Shown here: positions 9,259 through 63,779 of the stretch, piece after piece
How positions within the stretch are numbered: position 1 is the stretch's first letter
Layout: the number at the start of each line of letters is the position of its first letter
Source: a virus
Lineage: Duplodnaviria; Caudoviricetes
Strand: one strand, 5' to 3'
Length of the DNA stretch: 64,000 bases
Virus record (IMG/VR): IMGVR_UViG_2816332137_000001
Location: 3,602-67,601 of that record
Notes under the pieces: model-generated
What the model saw: only the letters and a program-made list of their open reading frames with translations
Told to the model about the DNA's origin: nothing
Databases searched by the model: none
Translations under genes and position numbers: made by a program

Positions 9259-10053
9259 TTAGACTCCTTCTACTATATTGGACAACTCTTTATATGCTAC
9301 CGCAACGTTAGAATCAGGAGCGAATAAACCTACGGGAGTTTTTTGGCGCTGACTTTCAATTACTTTTACAGAGTCCGGAACTTTCACGGTTAGAAATTTT
9401 TCTTTGTACTCTTCTTCTAATTCATCGAGTAGAGCGCGTACAGCATTGGACCCGCCCTTTTGAAATGAAGTAACAAACACGCCTAGAAGTTGTAAATCGG
9501 GATTGTTACCACTTTCTTTTATCATCTGAGCAACTTCATGAATCGTGCGCATCCCTTTTTGTGAGTACACGCTTAAATCTGTAGGAACCAAATAATAATC
9601 AGCCGCAACAAGAGCATTAATAGTTAGAACATTCATTAATGGAGATAAATCAATTAAAATATAATCAAAATTATCTTTTATTTTTGCAAGTATACTTTTT
9701 AAAATATGTTCTTTATTCAGTCGGCTGTGCAAGTGATCACTGATAGTTGCGAGTCTACAATCAGAAGGAAGTACAAGCGTATTTTGCCATGCTTCAATGG
9801 CTGGTTTAATTATTTCATCCAATTGAACCTTATTTTTAACATCTAAAAAAGCATCAAAAATAGTTTTAGTTTCCTCGTCTGTTACTTCACTCATACTCTT
9901 ACCTAAAAGCATTTTGCTTGCATTTTCCTGTGAGTCTAAATCAACAACGAGCACGCTTTTACCAGAATTTCCAAGTTGGTACGCGAGTTCAATTATAGTT
10001 GTAGTCTTTCCTACACCGCCCTTTTCGTTCACGATTGCAATTGTTCTTGTCAT
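9259..10053 (-). CDS. parA: ParA/Soj family partition ATPase
   Basis: Deviant Walker A NEKGGVGKTT, VVDLDSQ, ILIDLSP Walker B. Confidence 0.95.
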   Translation of the reverse strand: MTRTIAIVNEKGGVGKTTTIIELAYQLGNSGKSVLVVDLDSQENASKMLLGKSMSEVTDEETKTIFDAFLDVKNKVQLDEIIKPAIEAWQNTLVLPSDCRLATISDHLHSRLNKEHILKSILAKIKDNFDYILIDLSPLMNVLTINALVAADYYLVPTDLSVYSQKGMRTIHEVAQMIKESGNNPDLQLLGVFVTSFQKGGSNAVRALLDELEEEYKEKFLTVKVPDSVKVIESQRQKTPVGLFAPDSNVAVAYKELSNIVEGV

Positions 10054-15311: not shown

Positions 15312-15327
15312 GCAGTCAATTGACGGC
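15312..15327. promoter_or_regulatory. Palindromic operator-like site GCAGTCAATTGACGGC
   Basis: Between divergent genes; recurs at 62749, 63492 and 63764. Confidence 0.6.
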
Positions 15328-44611: not shown

Positions 44612-44896
44612 TTATTTCAGTAAAGATAGAAGATTATTTTTATCTTGTATTATATCTTTCTCTACAATAGAGATATCAACCGCACTTGCTCCTTCAATTC
44701 TATTCTCTTTCGCAAGCATATCCAATGCATAATTCATAAGCCAAATAGCTCGATCCGCCTGAGACTTTTGACCTCTAGGAAAGTTAATTTTTGAGCTATT
44801 AAAAGAAGTTTTAGCATTCTTAATAAAGTTTAAAACATCTGTATTCTCTTCCGAGTCAGGCAACCGCATTTGATAAAACTTTTTTTCGTCACTCAT
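44612..44896 (-). CDS. ParR-like adaptor/DNA-binding partner of the actin-like ATPase
   Basis: ATGA overlap with the upstream actin gene; N-terminal strand-helix (KFYQMRLP). Confidence 0.6.
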   Translation of the reverse strand: MSDEKKFYQMRLPDSEENTDVLNFIKNAKTSFNSSKINFPRGQKSQADRAIWLMNYALDMLAKENRIEGASAVDISIVEKDIIQDKNNLLSLLK

Positions 44897-45891
44897 ACTA
44901 TGGACACCTTTACGCTAGAGTTTCCAATATCTATTGATACATGTTTGTATGATGATTTTAACTTAGACAAACCAGCAACAACGCTAAAAGTTGGATCTAA
45001 GTCTTCAACAAGTTCGGTCATTAGAATAATGTTATAACCGTTACCTTTAGCGATTTCCTTAAGTACAGACATAAATACATGATCTTTTGCTGCACCACCA
45101 CTGACAACAATATTTTTTGCTCTATCTTTATAACGGGCATTTTTATTTAAAAGTTCTCCAATAACTGAACGGATAAATTGTCTGGCAGCAGTTTCTTTTT
45201 CCTTCAAACAATCAATTCTTTTTCCATTCATACCGGATTTTTCTGGCATGTTACCTAATTGCCATGAGTTTATTGCTTCACTTGATGATAAATTTTGTTG
45301 GTCAGAAAAAACCTGAATTGCTCCTGCTAAACCTTCAACGCGTGCGTAAGAATCTGGTAAATTCTTTCCATCAACTCTACTTGCTTGTTGCCAGTCACCG
45401 TGCCCGATGTGCCAATATAAAAAAGTTTTTGCGTCAAGTGGAATGTTGAGCATAGAAGCTAGGAATTCATATGCAATAGTTGGTTCTTCCTGAATAATGA
45501 TTTCGCAATTTTTCCAATTTGAATCAGTGGATTTATCCTTGAACCTAATATTTGCTACTGTTTCCTTAAGCAAAGCAAGTTTATTTCTTGCAAGGGTATT
45601 ATCACCTACCTGATCACGAAACTGATCCATAAACTGAAAAGGGACGCTCATGGCTAATGAAATTACGTGTGTCCCTTCTCCCAAAGCTCTTGCAAGTCCT
45701 GCTTTTAATAATGTTTGGTAATGATCTGACTCTAAAGTTCCACCAAATATTCTTGGGCTATGAGGATTTAAAGTTTGCGCCAGATCGCCTACAACCGTTT
45801 CAATTCCCTTATCATCAATTAAAATTGATTGTTTATTTAGCAACTCTTTTTCTTTGGGGGCAGAACAAATAAAACTTGGTAGAAATTCCAT
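44893..45891 (-). CDS. ParM/StbA-like actin-fold ATPase, circularly permuted
   Basis: Starts at MEFLPS (GAGG RBS); P2-like HIGHGD, adenosine VVSGGAA, connect-2 F.VV.GL; P1 motif SIDIGNSSVK at the C-terminus. Confidence 0.85.
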   Translation of the reverse strand: MEFLPSFICSAPKEKELLNKQSILIDDKGIETVVGDLAQTLNPHSPRIFGGTLESDHYQTLLKAGLARALGEGTHVISLAMSVPFQFMDQFRDQVGDNTLARNKLALLKETVANIRFKDKSTDSNWKNCEIIIQEEPTIAYEFLASMLNIPLDAKTFLYWHIGHGDWQQASRVDGKNLPDSYARVEGLAGAIQVFSDQQNLSSSEAINSWQLGNMPEKSGMNGKRIDCLKEKETAARQFIRSVIGELLNKNARYKDRAKNIVVSGGAAKDHVFMSVLKEIAKGNGYNIILMTELVEDLDPTFSVVAGLSKLKSSYKHVSIDIGNSSVKVSIV

Positions 45892-45944
45892 TAGATAGTT
45901 CCTCATATTTTAAAGCATAAATATTTTAGCTTTAAAGGGTGAAT

Positions 45945-48373: not shown

Positions 48374-48820
48374 TTAAAATTGACCTTCGTCGCATTGAAG
48401 ACAGATAAGCCCCATGCGTCGCCACATGTCGACTACCTGTTTACGATCATCAACGCAAAAGGTCACGTCAAATCTTGGCTGAATGTGCAAATTATAAATC
48501 TCCTCCTTAATCACTGCATCCTGACGATAATCTTGGTCTTTTCTCATTAGTAATAAATCGTAGAATTGATCATGGGTAGCTAGCCATTCCTCGGTTATTG
48601 CCCTTGTAAACTCATTACGACCAGTAACTAATATTATTTTGTGAGAGCCTTTAAAGTTTGTAATAATTGAAGCGCACCATGTATTTAACTTGTCTTGAAT
48701 TATATTTTCATCTTTTAAAAAAGACTTCCAATCCTTTTTTGAGCCTTCAATAAATTTTTTTCTATGTTCGCAATCTGCTAAAGTACCATCCAAATCAACA
48801 ATAATTGCTTTTTGTTTCAT
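48374..48820 (-). CDS. HAD 3'-phosphatase, T4 polynucleotide kinase-phosphatase C-domain type
   Basis: DLDGT, VTGR, LLMR...D.R.D..IKEE, DDR.QVV.MWRR.G..C.Q. Confidence 0.9.
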   Translation of the reverse strand: MKQKAIIVDLDGTLADCEHRKKFIEGSKKDWKSFLKDENIIQDKLNTWCASIITNFKGSHKIILVTGRNEFTRAITEEWLATHDQFYDLLLMRKDQDYRQDAVIKEEIYNLHIQPRFDVTFCVDDRKQVVDMWRRMGLICLQCDEGQF

Positions 48821-51858: not shown

Positions 51859-52512
51859 ATGTTAAACGAATCGCTAGAAAGATTAAAATTTCTCAGGGAA
51901 GAAATATTAAATTTAAGCCTCAAAGATTTTTGCAGCAAATTCTCACTATCTTATAGCTATATGAGAAATATAGAGTGTGGAGAAAAAGTATTACCAAAGA
52001 GTAAGTCACTAGAAATAACTAAAAAAATTCAAAATTATGGATTTAATATTTCAGATGAATGGATCGAAACGGGCTACGGTTCTTGCCCCATAAGCTCTTT
52101 TTCAATTCTAAAAACTAATAAGTATATTAATTTTGACGATACAAATACAGAACAAAGGCATTGGTTAAAAACCATTTTAACAAGAATATTTCCATACAAA
52201 TATGCATGTATTTCAACAAATGAAATGATGCCATTTTTAAAAAATGGAGACATTGTTTTTGGAGTTAATGGAGACCCTTCAAAGAATTTAGAACGATTGA
52301 ATAATGAAATTGTAATTGCGCGGGTTGAAGATAATTTCACTTATGTAAGAAGACTTCGAATTGTTGAAAATAATGTTTTTTTAGTAGCAGATAATCTTGA
52401 TAAAACAGATGATCCTGTTGTTAAAGTAAATAAAATTAATTGGATATCACCTATAATAATTCATAAAAAGCATGTTGGAAAAATCGAAATATTGGAGAAT
52501 CAAAATGATTAA
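51859..52512 (+). CDS. XRE HTH plus S24-like C-domain repressor (CI-like); catalytic dyad degenerate
   Basis: N-terminal HTH, WI..G.G hinge, NEMMP...GD.V and YVRRL in place of SM.P and KRL. Confidence 0.8.
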   Translation: MLNESLERLKFLREEILNLSLKDFCSKFSLSYSYMRNIECGEKVLPKSKSLEITKKIQNYGFNISDEWIETGYGSCPISSFSILKTNKYINFDDTNTEQRHWLKTILTRIFPYKYACISTNEMMPFLKNGDIVFGVNGDPSKNLERLNNEIVIARVEDNFTYVRRLRIVENNVFLVADNLDKTDDPVVKVNKINWISPIIIHKKHVGKIEILENQND

Positions 52513-53527
52513 AATTAGATATATATATATGGGTGCATTTATCGAAGCATTTGACTTTTGTGTTTATTTAGTGTTTTCTCATGAGCTTTCAAAATTTCTA
52601 CTTGGAAAAGAAAATTTATTTTTATCAATATTGATTTTTTCAATTTCATATATTGCAAGGCCATTTGGTTCTCTTTTTTTTGGAATTTTTGCTAAAAATC
52701 AAAAGAATGGAATCACAACATTTTTAAGAAATTCACCTCTCTGGATTGCAATTCCAACATTTATAATTGCATTTTGTCCAAGAAATGACTTTGGAATATA
52801 TTTACTTTTAATTTGCCGCTTTATGCAAGGATTTATTTTTGGAGGAGAGAGCGGTTTAAGTTTTGTTTTTGCATATTTAAACGTGACTAAATACAAAAAT
52901 ACTGCGATTGCAGCGTTTCTAACAAGTGGTGCCGTTGCTATGGCTGCCTGCTTTATTTTAATTCCTCTAATTCCTTCATTATTTAATTTAGAATCTTGGA
53001 GATTAGCATTTATTATATCAGGAATTTTGAGTTTATTATTTGTTATTATTAGATCCAAGATTCCAAAAGTAAGTAACGAAAAATTTGAAACAAGTTCAAA
53101 AAATGTGAGCGCATTTAAAGCAATTTCATATATAATTATTTATGCTGCTATGTTCAATACAGTCCTAGCCTTTTTAACATCAGGTCAAAAATATATTAGC
53201 TTACCTCTAGCTATGTTAAGCATTTCTTTTTTATCAATTATATTTGGATATATATTTGATAAAATAAATATTCTAAGATTTTTAAAATTAATAAATGCTT
53301 TGGCTATTTTTCTATTGCTTATTTTAATGTACTTTAATTTAAATTTGTTAGCTTTTTTTACAGCATTTATAATGTGCTGTGCGCTAGGCGGCATTTCGAT
53401 TTCTTCAGCTATAAAATATTTGTCAAATAGTAAAAGTTTATATCCAAAATTCGGATTAGTTTATAACACAGTCATGGGAAGCATGGGGGCGTTAGTCCCA
53501 ATAATCAGGGAGGTATTTAAATCATGA
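52505..53527 (+). CDS. MFS transporter (MHS/ProP-like)
   Basis: E.FDF..Y, Y.ARP.G...FG, R..QG...GGE..; start overlaps the repressor stop. Confidence 0.85.
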   Translation: MIKIRYIYMGAFIEAFDFCVYLVFSHELSKFLLGKENLFLSILIFSISYIARPFGSLFFGIFAKNQKNGITTFLRNSPLWIAIPTFIIAFCPRNDFGIYLLLICRFMQGFIFGGESGLSFVFAYLNVTKYKNTAIAAFLTSGAVAMAACFILIPLIPSLFNLESWRLAFIISGILSLLFVIIRSKIPKVSNEKFETSSKNVSAFKAISYIIIYAAMFNTVLAFLTSGQKYISLPLAMLSISFLSIIFGYIFDKINILRFLKLINALAIFLLLILMYFNLNLLAFFTAFIMCCALGGISISSAIKYLSNSKSLYPKFGLVYNTVMGSMGALVPIIREVFKS

Positions 53528-54338: not shown

Positions 54339-55673
54339 ATGACTACTCAAAATTGTTGTGATCTTTCAAAATCCAAAACCAGAAAAACATATAAAAATAA
54401 ACTAATTTTAAAACCAATGCGGGAAGGTTACACTCACAATCACGCAAAAAATGAAGCTTACAATGGTGGTAGATCTTTAAGGGCAATTTGGACAAATCCA
54501 AATATCACTTCAACTCAAAGTTTAGTTTTATTATGTATTTCTTCACATTTGGATTTTAAAAAAGATTTTAAATCTTGGATAAAAATTTCAATCTCTCAAA
54601 TTGCTTCCGAAACTAAATTAGGCGTAAGAACAGTCCATAAAATCATTTCCGAATTAATAAAATTGGAATATTTAAATAAGCAAAGAAATTTTTCCCAAAA
54701 AACTTTTTTACAAGAGGAAAGTAGTTTTTGCTTAACTAATAAGCTTTTTGATGAGCATGTAAATTATTTACAAAAAAGTTTAGTTCCTACCTCGAATCAC
54801 AATGAGCATGTAAAAGAGTACAAATTTCAAAAATCTCTAAAAAGTAGCAATAAAAAAATTTTACAGTCCGCAACTCCTGCAAAGCAAGTCCGCACACCTT
54901 ACACATCTAATATGCACGACATGCAAAGTAAGGTTGTACGAGATGCAGACATTTTCCCCTTAGATCTTTCCTCTTTAAAACTTTCCCCTCAAAATTCTCC
55001 AATGTGTGAAGAAAAAATTTCACACACAATTGAAAATCCTATTGCTTATAAAAGTAACAACTCAGAATTAAAGCAAGTGGGAATTATAATTTGCGAATTA
55101 CTTAAGCAAAAGCAAAAAAGGAAGTTTATCCCAAATATGGAATGCGAAAGCTTAATAGCTAAAGCTAAGCTTCACCTAGATCTTAACAACTGTGATCAAT
55201 TTTTATCTTTCGCTAAAGCTGCCATAGCTAATGAGCATTACAACAATTTAAATAACTCTAAGAATATCGAAAGTATTTTCATTAATGAAGTAAAAAGTTT
55301 TATTGATAACAAAGAATATATTGCTTCTTTTAAAGCTAAAGAGATTACCGAATGCAAAAAAGAATCAATCGAGCAAATAGCAAATCGTTTTAAAGCACCT
55401 GTGGAGCAATTTTTAGGACAGGCCTTAACCAGTGTTCATGCAAAACAAAATGAGCCTTTAAAAGCTAAAGAAACACGTCAATCAAGTTTAACTGATGGCT
55501 TAAGCGATTCTGCTTTAGCTTGGTACAAAAATTTAGATAGAGCAAATAAAATCATTGTTCAAAAAGAAATCAAAAAGCATGGTCCCGCAAAATTTTCATC
55601 TTTAATTCTTCCAAGCATCAAATCTTATAAAAATTTCGTTACAAGCTTTAAATTTGAAGCGAGGGCAGCATGA
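54339..55673 (+). CDS. wHTH replication initiator-like protein
   Basis: T.T..LVLL.I..H...S.SQIA.ETKLG.RTV.K.I.ELI..EYL (HTH_36-like). Confidence 0.7.
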   Translation: MTTQNCCDLSKSKTRKTYKNKLILKPMREGYTHNHAKNEAYNGGRSLRAIWTNPNITSTQSLVLLCISSHLDFKKDFKSWIKISISQIASETKLGVRTVHKIISELIKLEYLNKQRNFSQKTFLQEESSFCLTNKLFDEHVNYLQKSLVPTSNHNEHVKEYKFQKSLKSSNKKILQSATPAKQVRTPYTSNMHDMQSKVVRDADIFPLDLSSLKLSPQNSPMCEEKISHTIENPIAYKSNNSELKQVGIIICELLKQKQKRKFIPNMECESLIAKAKLHLDLNNCDQFLSFAKAAIANEHYNNLNNSKNIESIFINEVKSFIDNKEYIASFKAKEITECKKESIEQIANRFKAPVEQFLGQALTSVHAKQNEPLKAKETRQSSLTDGLSDSALAWYKNLDRANKIIVQKEIKKHGPAKFSSLILPSIKSYKNFVTSFKFEARAA

Positions 55674-55963: not shown

Positions 55964-56065
55964 TTTACTTTTGCAATAGAACTCTTTTATAAAATCGTTC
56001 CTTTAGGAATAACCGAATTAAAAGAGTTCTTAATAAAAAAACATTCCCTAAGGGAGTACCGATTA

Positions 56066-56656
56066 ATGCAAAGTATTAAAATAATTAATACTTCAAATAA
56101 TGAAGTATTTTATGCTACAGAAAAATCAGCAGGCTTTGATATTGCAGCGAATGAAAATGTTTTACTTTTGCCGCTGCAAGTTAAAAAAATAAAAACAGGA
56201 TTATTTTGGAAAATAGAAGATGATTCTGATTTATTAAGCACAACAGCAGCCGCTAAATTAGCACGATGCAGTCCTACAACTATCCGAAGAATGTGTGCCA
56301 AGGGCGATCTTAAATATGAAAATGTAAATAAGAAAATTTTAATAAATAAAGAACATCTTTTATCTTATCTTGATAGCGATGAAATAATTGATTTATCAGA
56401 TAAGTTTGAGCTTCAAATAAGACCTCGTAGCTCATCCCTCCTTAAAGAAAAACTTCATATCCAACTTGGCACTATCGATCCTGATTATACAGGAGAGATT
56501 TGCATTATAGTTCAAAATCTTTCCTTTAAACCTAAACTAATTTTTAAAGGCGAGCGCATAGCTCAAGGCGTTATTTCAAATATCCACACCGCAAATAATT
56601 TAATCAATAAAAAAATAATACGCAAAAATAATGGCTTTGGGAGCACTGGAAAATGA
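56066..56656 (+). CDS. dut: Trimeric dUTPase with an inserted HTH domain
   Basis: AGFDI (I), RPRSS (II), GTIDPDYTGE (III), RIAQ (IV), R..NGFGSTG (V); HTH insert at about aa 56-103. Confidence 0.92.
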   Translation: MQSIKIINTSNNEVFYATEKSAGFDIAANENVLLLPLQVKKIKTGLFWKIEDDSDLLSTTAAAKLARCSPTTIRRMCAKGDLKYENVNKKILINKEHLLSYLDSDEIIDLSDKFELQIRPRSSSLLKEKLHIQLGTIDPDYTGEICIIVQNLSFKPKLIFKGERIAQGVISNIHTANNLINKKIIRKNNGFGSTGK

Positions 56657-57089: not shown

Positions 57090-57362
57090 ATGAATAATAC
57101 TGAATCAATCGAGAACTTAAAAGATGAAAATAATCAATTAAAAATTGAGATAGATAACTTAAAGAGAGATAAAAAATTATTAATTAACACCATAGAAAAA
57201 ATGGCAAGTCAAGCAAGATCTCAACTTCACAGTTTAGAAAAAACTTTAGATTTATTTAGAGTTTTTAATCAAAAAATTAAATGCGCACCACCTTCAGGAG
57301 TTGAGCGCCCAAAAGGTTCTCTTGATGAATCAAATATCATTAAAAAATCATGGAGAAAATAA
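57090..57362 (+). CDS. Coiled-coil hypothetical protein
   Basis: Heptad pattern. Confidence 0.6.
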   Translation: MNNTESIENLKDENNQLKIEIDNLKRDKKLLINTIEKMASQARSQLHSLEKTLDLFRVFNQKIKCAPPSGVERPKGSLDESNIIKKSWRK

Positions 57363-57363
57363 A

Positions 57364-57627
57364 ATGGAAGATATTCATCTAAAAATTAATGATAAAAATT
57401 CAAAATATAGAGCTAAAATTTATATGAAAAATAAATCATCTGATTTTACTAATTTTAATGAAATTGAAAAAGAATTAAAAAATAAAAATATAAAAAAAGG
57501 ATTGATATTTTTTGATTTATCCAAAAGAAACTTTCCAGAAAAGAATTGCTTTTTTGAAATCTATTACAATGGAGAACGATTCATAGATGGAACATGGAAA
57601 CAAGTAAATCAAGAGGAAAGAATATGA
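57364..57627 (+). CDS. Hypothetical protein
   Basis: GGAG RBS before MEDIHLK. Confidence 0.55.
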   Translation: MEDIHLKINDKNSKYRAKIYMKNKSSDFTNFNEIEKELKNKNIKKGLIFFDLSKRNFPEKNCFFEIYYNGERFIDGTWKQVNQEERI

Positions 57628-58076
57628 AAAAAAATAATTCAAATACTGAACATAAAACATTTAAGACAAGAATTCCTAGAAATATTCGGAGTTTTGCAAT
57701 TAATAATTTCGGTGTTGAATTTAGAGTAGCTGAGACTTTAGAGAAAGCTAATATAATAGGATTACCTGAAGAAGCAAATAAACATGATGCTTTATATATA
57801 GAAAAATCAGCAGTTGTTTTTGTAAAAAAATTTACAGAATTTGATCCTACAGACTTAAATTTTATTTTACTTCATGAACTTGGACACGCAATTTTAGATT
57901 TTTATAAAAACGAAGCAGGACTTAAAATTGAAGAAAGAGATGAAGAAATCAAAGCGAATGGAATTGCGTTTGCTATTGCAGCACTTTTAAAAATTCCAGT
58001 TTCAGAAACGATGATTAAAAATTTAAATAGATTTTTGTGTTTGAGTGAAGGCGAACAAATTCAGTGGGAATTTTAA
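57624..58076 (+). CDS. ImmA/IrrE-like zinc metallopeptidase
   Basis: LLHELGH (HExxH) and downstream EE..AN..A. Confidence 0.7.
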   Translation: MKKNNSNTEHKTFKTRIPRNIRSFAINNFGVEFRVAETLEKANIIGLPEEANKHDALYIEKSAVVFVKKFTEFDPTDLNFILLHELGHAILDFYKNEAGLKIEERDEEIKANGIAFAIAALLKIPVSETMIKNLNRFLCLSEGEQIQWEF

Positions 58077-58085
58077 GGAGATATT

Positions 58086-58415
58086 ATGACTATAAATATA
58101 ATTGAAGGAAATAAAGCATCAGATATATATTTAAAACTAAACTTAAAAAGTCGTCAAAAAGTTGAAGAAATAGCTTCTGCAAGTAGAATAAATATTAATT
58201 ATCAACTGGTATTTAAAGCATATATAGAAGAAAGATTTTCTGAAAATGAGATAACAAAAGAGAGCCAAGATAAATGCTCATTAATCAGAAATAAATGCAA
58301 AGAATTAGCTTGTTTTTTAGTTGATACAATTCCTGATAGTCGTGAATTATCAACGGCATTAACAAGTTTAGAAACTACAATGTTTTTTGCGGAAGCAGGA
58401 ATTCAAAGAAGTTAA
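58086..58415 (+). CDS. Acb2/Tad1-like helical hairpin protein
   Basis: IR.K.KELA......P.SRE.S.ALT.LE...F.A.A.I.R. Confidence 0.65.
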   Translation: MTINIIEGNKASDIYLKLNLKSRQKVEEIASASRININYQLVFKAYIEERFSENEITKESQDKCSLIRNKCKELACFLVDTIPDSRELSTALTSLETTMFFAEAGIQRS

Positions 58416-60712: not shown

Positions 60713-61546
60713 ATGAAACCAAGTGAAGATTTTAAAAAATTTAATAAAATAAATGCACTTTATAAAGCAAAAATGACTATCACTCAAAAGTTACACGGGA
60801 CAAACGCTTTAATTTATATCTATTTTGATGGGATGACAGGAAATTTAGATTTAATTTGTGGATCTAGAACTCGCTGGATAACTCCTCAAGATGATAATTA
60901 TGGATTTGCTAAATTTATTCATGAAAATAAAGAAGAATTTATAGATAAATTAGGGGAAGGATATCATTACGGTGAATGGGTAGGATTTGGGATAAATTCA
61001 GGAGAAGGTTTAGATAATCGAAATCTAATTTTATTTGATTGGCAAAAATTTCATAATAAGCCTCTTCCAGAGAGAACAAATACTATTCCAGTTTTATATC
61101 ATGGAGAAATAAACTTTAATATAATTAATGAAAAAATGGAATATTTAAAAAATAATGGTTCAGAATTAGTTAAAGGTTTTATGAATGTTGAGGGAATCGT
61201 TATTGATATTAACGGAGTAAAGTATAAAAAAGTTTTTAACCCAGAGGAAACAAAATGGATTTCATCAAAGTCTGATAAGAAAATGAAACAAGACAATTTA
61301 GTTTTTGATTACTTATTACAGCATAACAGATTAGAAAATTTGCTATCTAAAGATGAACGATATTTAAAAGAATTTCCAAAATCTATAGGTTTAATAATTA
61401 ATGATTACACCTCTGATTTGCTAAGTGAAGAACAAATTGATGAAAATATCTACAATCAGAACTTAAAAAAAATAAAAAGAGAAGTTGGGTATTTTGTAGT
61501 GGATTTAATAAAAAGTAAATTATTAAAACAAAGCAAAGCAAGCTAA
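60713..61546 (+). CDS. RNA ligase, Rnl2 family
   Basis: Nucleotidyltransferase motifs I KLHGTN, Ia GSR, III YGEW, IIIa LFD, IV EGIV, V KKVF. Confidence 0.88.
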   Translation: MKPSEDFKKFNKINALYKAKMTITQKLHGTNALIYIYFDGMTGNLDLICGSRTRWITPQDDNYGFAKFIHENKEEFIDKLGEGYHYGEWVGFGINSGEGLDNRNLILFDWQKFHNKPLPERTNTIPVLYHGEINFNIINEKMEYLKNNGSELVKGFMNVEGIVIDINGVKYKKVFNPEETKWISSKSDKKMKQDNLVFDYLLQHNRLENLLSKDERYLKEFPKSIGLIINDYTSDLLSEEQIDENIYNQNLKKIKREVGYFVVDLIKSKLLKQSKAS

Positions 61547-62748: not shown

Positions 62749-62764
62749 GCAGTCAATTGACGGC
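62749..62764. promoter_or_regulatory. Palindromic operator-like site GCAGTCAATTGACGGC
   Basis: Identical to the 15312 copy. Confidence 0.6.
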
Positions 62765-63488: not shown

Positions 63489-63510
63489 TTAGCAGTCAAT
63501 TGACTGCTAA
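63489..63510. promoter_or_regulatory. 22-bp perfect palindrome TTAGCAGTCAATTGACTGCTAA
   Basis: Read directly from the sequence. Confidence 0.65.
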
Positions 63511-63763: not shown

Positions 63764-63779
63764 GCAGTCAATTGACTGC
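63764..63779. promoter_or_regulatory. Palindromic operator-like site GCAGTCAATTGACTGC
   Basis: Perfect 16-bp palindrome. Confidence 0.6.

Follow-up and report, generated by a model that had tools for sequence, protein, structure and literature searches.

Trimeric dUTPases represent a textbook housekeeping fold that has acquired signalling roles in staphylococcal phages. The enzymes of these phages derepress SaPIbov1 through Stl and thereby provide a precedent for moonlighting (PMC6770826). A direct connection to nucleic acids is described for the betaretroviral nucleocapsid-dUTPase of Mason-Pfizer monkey virus, a trimer which binds oligonucleotides and whose three binding domains then adopt the symmetry of the trimer (PMC1802613). 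Beyond this protein, we found no other precedent for a dUTPase joined to a nucleic-acid-binding domain, and our literature search yielded neither a paper naming both dUTPase and HTH_17 nor a description of the architecture reported here.

We describe a phage dUTPase (P0001) that carries an HTH_17 domain nested between motifs I and II. The analysis confirmed that this HTH-dUTPase is real, rare, conserved within one phage-plasmid lineage and unstudied. The public names of such proteins, 'hypothetical protein' and 'helix-turn-helix domain-containing protein (plasmid)', do not cite a dUTPase, which means that the enzyme half has gone unrecognised.

A winged helix nested within a phage dUTPase

The open reading frame begins with an ATG that is preceded, 9 nt upstream, by the Shine-Dalgarno sequence AAGGGAG. 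Its stop codon overlaps the ATG of the next ORF (ATGA), an arrangement typical of a coupled operon. The gene and its parts are organised as follows.

56066..56656, + strand: whole CDS, dUTPase with nested HTH_17 domain, 196 aa, P0001 (Pfam; PHROG 135)
56066..56221, + strand: N-terminal part of the dUTPase fold, residues 1-52 (alignments; model strands E2-8, E23-27 and E39-52)
56126-56143, + strand: motif I, SAGFDI, residues 21-26 (alignment)
56222..56230, + strand: short acidic entry linker, residues 53-55, DSD (net charge of residues 49-55, -3; charge count)
56231..56377, + strand: HTH_17 or Xis-BldC-type winged helix, residues 56-104 (Pfam; AF2; Foldseek and VIA-align; charge)
56378..56401, + strand: acidic return linker, residues 105-112 (AF2, charge)
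56402..56653, + strand: C-terminal part of the dUTPase fold, residues 113-196 (Pfam, alignments, Foldseek dUTPase matches with probability 1.0)
56420-56440, + strand: motif II, RPRSSS, residues 119-124 (alignment)
56468-56500, + strand: motif III, GTIDPDYTGEI, residues 135-145 (alignment)
56555-56569, + strand: motif IV, RIAQG, residues 164-168 (alignment)
56621-56650, + strand: motif V, RKNNGFGSTG, residues 186-195 (alignment)

Both halves of the protein were recognised by profile searches. The dUTPase family PF00692 matched in two stretches (E 1.6e-14, 54.2 bits against a cut-off of 22) and PHROG 135, a dUTPase family, matched with E 6e-26. The original prediction had proposed that all five motifs of trimeric dUTPases are intact; we located each of them in P0001, which conserves all invariant columns of an alignment of 60 dUTPase sequences. 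Specifically, D25, R121, S122, D138, D140, Y141, R164, Q167, R186, F191 and G192-T194 are present at columns that are invariant or near-invariant.

The prediction of approximately 50 extra residues between motifs I and II was equally accurate. The peptide in question comprises residues 56-102, encoded by exactly nt 56231-56371, and P0001 exceeds its nearest insert-less relative (P0008, 143 aa) by 53 aa in length. The excisionase/MerR-like HTH_17 pattern noticed in this segment corresponds to a Pfam match to PF12728 (E 9.9e-10, 39 bits against a cut-off of 27) that spans residues 56-104 and profile positions 1-49 of 51, and the predicted winged-helix fold agrees with it. No other protein of the genome matched HTH_17 above the cut-off in a Pfam scan.

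The full-length AF2 model of P0001 (mean pLDDT 85) displays the jelly-roll beta fold of trimeric dUTPases. A Foldseek search with this model gave 234 PDB matches at E<=0.001 and, among the matches listed, all were dUTPases. The core aligned to solved dUTPases with a Foldseek probability of 1.0 and target-normalised TM-scores of 0.75-0.85, leaving the insert as a gap. In the model, a long strand (residues 39-52) exits the core and leads to the insert (residues 56-101), from which a linker returns to a strand at residues 113-119 and to motif II. The insert itself consists of a strand, two helices (residues 59-66 and a recognition helix at about 70-79), a beta-hairpin wing (84-94) and a third helix (95-104). 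Residues 101-110, a block that reaches into the acidic linker, were modelled with low confidence (mean pLDDT 61). The HTH domain is thus predicted to sit at the tip of the beta-hairpin leading into motif II.

A PDB sequence search with the insert returned nothing meaningful, so that a fold search was needed. The insert was modelled alone together with the sequences of its relatives. The resulting model (pLDDT 82) displayed a beta-alpha-alpha-beta-beta-alpha topology identical to that in the full-length model. Foldseek ranked Pukovnik Xis first (rmsd 1.0 over 48 columns), followed by BldC, RdfS, TraN and P2 Cox, with query-normalised TM-scores of 0.72-0.75 for Pukovnik Xis, BldC and RdfS. A second, independent fold search against representatives again gave Pukovnik Xis (Z 8.8, rmsd 1.6 over 52/54 residues), then BldC (Z 8.0), RdfS (Z 7.5) and Tn916 Xis (Z 6.3) and a run of DNA-binding domains of the MerR family. 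The best 30 rows of the insert fold search were mostly DNA-binding domains of the same winged-helix type. On the basis of these models, the insert is a folded excisionase/BldC/MerR-type winged helix.

The phage-plasmid and its early region

The window, the whole stretch of 64,000 nucleotides that was analysed, covers nearly all of a 67.6-kb contig (C30) with 28% GC. The contig carries structural genes for terminase, portal, head protease, tail sheath, tape measure and baseplate as well as replication and recombination genes encoding RecT, SSB, a Gam-like protein and two replication initiators. In addition, two partition genes are present.

9259-10053, - strand: ParA
44893-45906, - strand: second partition gene

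We found no match to the tyrosine and serine recombinase families (PF00589, PF00239) on the contig. The circular plasmid pGTC16762-2 of Pigmentibacter ruber (AP029161) is related to the window, with 64% identity in TerL, 92% in the tail sheath and 73% in the HTH-dUTPase. This plasmid, from strain GTC16762, comprises 67,953 bp with 27.75% GC, and the genome paper describing it never mentions a phage (PMC11385108). Phage genes next to ParA and partition genes, the lack of a recombinase and the circular plasmid relative together identify the element, as judged from its sequence, as a ~68-kb myovirus-type phage-plasmid.

We infer that the host is a freshwater member of the Silvanigrellaceae belonging to the genus Fluviispira, since the insert-less relative Fluviispira vulneris was placed in the same genus as the genome of the window. 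The host genome encodes its own canonical dut (154 aa, contig C15), which makes the phage copy an accessory enzyme.

The phage dut is a real early gene and always lies in the early/replication module. Insert-bearing loci are all syntenic and display RecT, an S24 repressor-like gene, an HTH_36 replication initiator, a small ORF, dut and further small ORFs in this order. Around dut we observed a set of counter-defence-like genes (57301-58415, 60713-61546 and 48374-48820). The set includes an RnlB-like antitoxin (26.7 bits, just below the cut-off of 27), an M78/ImmA-like peptidase and an Acb2/Tad1 hairpin protein (E 5.6e-10). It also includes an RNA ligase and a polynucleotide kinase, which suggest tRNA repair. 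Another gene of the early region (52472-53527) resembles MFS transporters (PF07690, E 3e-10), an unusual phage cargo whose position is kept in the relatives L004, L008, L010 and L105. Inside a replication-initiator gene (54339-55673), three 19-nt direct repeats spaced by 14-15 nt (54953-55000) represent candidate origin iterons.

Searching for a DNA target of the HTH domain, we considered a structured leader upstream of dut and a repeated palindrome, neither of which could be linked to the domain, and no target was found.

55978..56057, + strand: structured dut leader, composed of a nested hairpin with outer arms 55978-55989 / 56019-56030 and a second hairpin (56043-56057) that overlaps the dut Shine-Dalgarno sequence

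Across eight loci, the leader hairpins show compensatory changes in 5 of 22 pairs, and the leader is kept upstream of dut in L004, L005, L006, L008, L011, L012 and L105. No Rfam family matches it. The element could be an RNA leader, a processing element or an operator. The hairpin also occurs in the locus with only a partial insert (L008), and a link to the HTH could not be made. The 16-bp palindrome GCAGTCAATTGACTGC is found in four intergenic copies (15312-15327, 62749-62764, 63492-63507 and 63764-63779), two of them perfect and two with one mismatch, where 0.16 would be expected by chance. One copy lies directly upstream of the structural module and further copies are located on the chromosome contigs C3 and C15. 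The palindrome is probably an operator for a dimeric regulator; it would suit a dimeric binder, is present on the chromosome as well and could not be tied to the HTH-dUTPase.

Distribution and evolution of the insert

An insertion without counterpart in any homolog had been named as an outcome that would refute the original inference. We searched 5.8 billion proteins with a word-indexed method. The combination of PF12728 and PF00692 was found in six other 90%-identity clusters with 54-94% identity to P0001, showing that the insert is not a one-off. The nearest relatives without an HTH_17 match are P0008 from F. vulneris and P0009 (173 aa). When 1.84 billion representative proteins were scanned exhaustively by HMMER for the insert alone, 13 matches were obtained, one of which was a dUTPase cluster (P0005). 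Ten other matches were scanned with Pfam: eight were ordinary HTH_17 proteins (28-47% identity) and two were repeat proteins without HTH_17. The latter two, the metagenomic proteins P0122 (1325 aa) and P0123 (357 aa), ranked at the top and match the insert through 18 and 5 short stretches, respectively; P0122 has no Pfam match whatever and P0123 has unrelated weak ones only. Owing to the many short stretches and the lack of an HTH_17 match, we treated both as repeat-driven.

Elsewhere, the IMG/VR search yielded insert-less forms only, the ESM Atlas yielded plain dUTPase clusters only (scores 0.82), and among 34 species genomes of the order the insert was present solely in the window's own genome. 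The architecture is very rare. On one metagenomic contig of 2814 nt, the HTH-dUTPase copy is apparently split into two ORFs of cluster 1, P0136 (54 aa) and P0137 (121 aa), which reflects either a frameshift or an assembly error.

Selection was assessed with the Nei-Gojobori method on six colinear genes, in which the insert comprises about 54 codons. At dS near 1, the core gave dN/dS values of 0.04-0.10 and the insert values of 0.09-0.47. The insert is thus under purifying selection, although its rate of evolution is 2-5 times that of the core. Neither the hydrophobic core of the HTH nor R75, K79 or G80 varies among the six closest homologs, and changes cluster in the recognition helix and the wing. 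The net charge of the HTH ranges from +3 to +6 among these homologs (+6 for residues 56-101 of P0001) and is +2 in the more distant P0007. The flanking linkers are acidic (net charge -2 to -5), and residues 106-110 of the return linker (EIIDL) are invariant among the six homologs.

In a maximum likelihood tree of the core, the family forms a well-supported clade (99/98) with three branches: P0008, P0007 together with P0009 (91/86), and the six close homologs (87/96). Compared with its insert-bearing sister, P0009 has a 21-residue gap, in two segments, over the recognition helix and the first wing strand, and still keeps every dUTPase motif. The alignment and the tree indicate that the HTH was eroded at least once and that P0008 either lost it or never had it. 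Since the insert is eroded in P0009 and absent from P0008, it appears to be useful but dispensable in nature.

The origin of the insert was addressed by comparison with free-standing HTH_17 proteins. The nearest ones are metagenomic (34-47% identity), and no donor was found among those compared. A free-standing HTH_17 gene beside RecT in an insert-less relative (L010:1054-1461) was discarded as a donor (BLASTP E 0.92 to the insert). An intein or mobile ORF was discarded as well, given an in-frame insert of about 50 aa under purifying selection that lacks splicing motifs. Fusion of two genes by a frameshift does not apply because both flanks belong to one dUTPase domain.

Functional readings and comparison with known systems

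We favour, with slightly better than even confidence, an active dUTPase trimer with three DNA-binding heads that acts within the early/replication module as a regulator or a DNA-tethered factor. A dUTPase of the homotrimer type, predicted to be catalytically competent, has acquired a complete excisionase/BldC/MerR-type winged helix. Given strong purifying selection on the motifs that form the active sites between subunits, the enzyme would still trimerise and hydrolyse dUTP, keeping uracil out of the replicon DNA. Each trimer would expose three basic HTH heads flanked by acidic linkers. Should these heads bind DNA, either sequence-specifically as in a regulator or as a simple tether, the enzyme would gain a second role as a tethered or regulatory factor on DNA. 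DNA binding by the heads has indirect support from their basic charge and from the conservation of R75, K79 and G80.

This reading draws on the Pfam domains, the kept catalytic residues, the models of core and insert, the recurrence of the architecture, the selection and charge patterns, the host dut, the plasmid-type replicon and the precedent of the oligonucleotide-binding nucleocapsid-dUTPase trimer (PMC1802613). Counting against it are the dispensability of the insert (P0008 lacks it and P0009 lacks the recognition helix) and its faster evolution relative to the core. Moreover, Xis, BldC and MerR domains bind head-to-tail or as dimers, unlike what a threefold scaffold would present.

As a further point against DNA binding, HTH_17 domains can also act as protein-binding modules, as exemplified by TorI. 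The insert might be a protein-interaction or decoy module and not a DNA binder, contacting a repressor, the replication initiator, the sensor of a satellite or a host defence protein. A parallel is offered by the dUTPases of staphylococcal phages, whose moonlighting consists in binding the SaPI repressor Stl, and trimeric phage dUTPases are documented protein-binding derepressors (PMC6770826). The early operon is rich in genes of counter-defence type (the RnlB-like antitoxin, M78 peptidase, Acb2/Tad1, RNA ligase and polynucleotide kinase), and the HTH surface residues evolve fast, as an arms race predicts. Nevertheless, the closest relatives in sequence and fold are DNA-binding domains, and a contact with DNA would agree with the basic charge and with the conservation of R75, K79 and G80. 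We consider such a module unlikely, if a serious contender.

A catalytic core and an HTH within one polypeptide would also suit a nucleotide-gated switch, in line with the nucleotide sensing proposed in the original prediction. Here occupancy of the active site by dUTP, via ordering of motif V, would alter how the HTH binds DNA and thereby link transcription to dUTP pools. A dUTP-gated, three-headed protein of this kind might govern whether the heads engage the DNA of the phage-plasmid, for instance at early promoters or the origin. The return linker enters its strand seven residues before motif II, and staphylococcal phage dUTPases are unable to bind dUTP and Stl at once (PMC6770826). The model, in contrast, positions the HTH at the end of the hairpin, far from the active site, and the pLDDT of 61 in the linker suggests loose coupling. 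Gating by dUTP is therefore doubtful in our view, both as a general mechanism and in its three-headed form.

Could the insert simply be a functionless passenger tolerated in a permissive loop? The length of this loop varies, the host Dut and other Silvanigrellales Duts having 10-20 extra residues there, and two lineages have lost the insert or retain only an eroded form. Such a domain would hardly be expected to show dN/dS well below 1 over about 54 codons at dS near 1, an invariant hydrophobic fold core among the six closest homologs and persistence down to 54% overall identity, which makes this explanation very unlikely.

The earlier interpretation is partly supported: sequence and fold bear out the architecture, and the recombination arm of its functional inference is unlikely. 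A dUTPase-borne excisionase or recombination directionality factor would agree with the best fold matches (Pukovnik Xis, RdfS and Tn916 Xis) and with the many Xis proteins in the HTH_17 family, but it is highly improbable because the contig has no PF00589 or PF00239 match, hence no integrase to direct, and because the element, with its ParA and additional partition gene, is a phage-plasmid whose relative AP029161 is a free circular plasmid (PMC11385108).

If the DNA-binding trimer proves true, the nested domain would represent a second, independent route by which a dUTPase came to moonlight, and a natural domain insertion into a trimeric enzyme that places three HTH heads on a threefold scaffold. 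If the switch were true, replication, or the choice of lysogeny over lysis, would depend on the quality of the nucleotide pool, and the protein would transpose to DNA binding the G-protein-like mechanism put forward for the dUTPases of staphylococcal phages. Members of the family with a full insert, a deleted recognition helix or no insert can serve as natural controls, and P. ruber GTC16762 is cultured and carries a related element as a circular plasmid, making these ideas directly testable.

With the homotrimeric all-beta dUTPases of H. pylori (8hrv/8k6w), E. coli (1dup) and a chlorella virus (3c2t), P0001 has in common the five motifs, the jelly-roll core and the C-terminal motif V arm. Where the canonical enzymes have a turn of 3-5 residues between motifs I and II, P0001 has a folded winged helix of 50-60 residues. 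The analogy to staphylococcal phage dUTPases drawn in the original prediction stands in principle, as a precedent for moonlighting. The enzymes of phi11 and 80alpha are likewise phage proteins with a fast-evolving extra segment on a conserved core. The analogy does not extend to homology, because the phi11 insert lies between motifs III and IV (alignment with L104:2420-2926), whereas that of P0001 lies between I and II, and because the phi11 insert does not belong to a Pfam HTH family and serves to bind protein, whereas that of P0001 is a bona fide HTH_17. The resemblance to the betaretroviral nucleocapsid-dUTPase is functional only, since there the nucleocapsid part is fused N-terminally, in contrast to the internal HTH_17 winged helix of P0001 (PMC1802613). 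Pukovnik Xis (4j2n), BldC (6amk), RdfS (8dgl) and Tn916 Xis (1y6u) have the fold in common with the insert over 51-55 residues, and the sequence family is HTH_17 (39 bits). Xis, BldC and MerR-N domains are free-standing or N-terminal and act as monomer arrays or dimers, whereas the HTH of P0001 is nested, has no partner recombinase and would come in threes.
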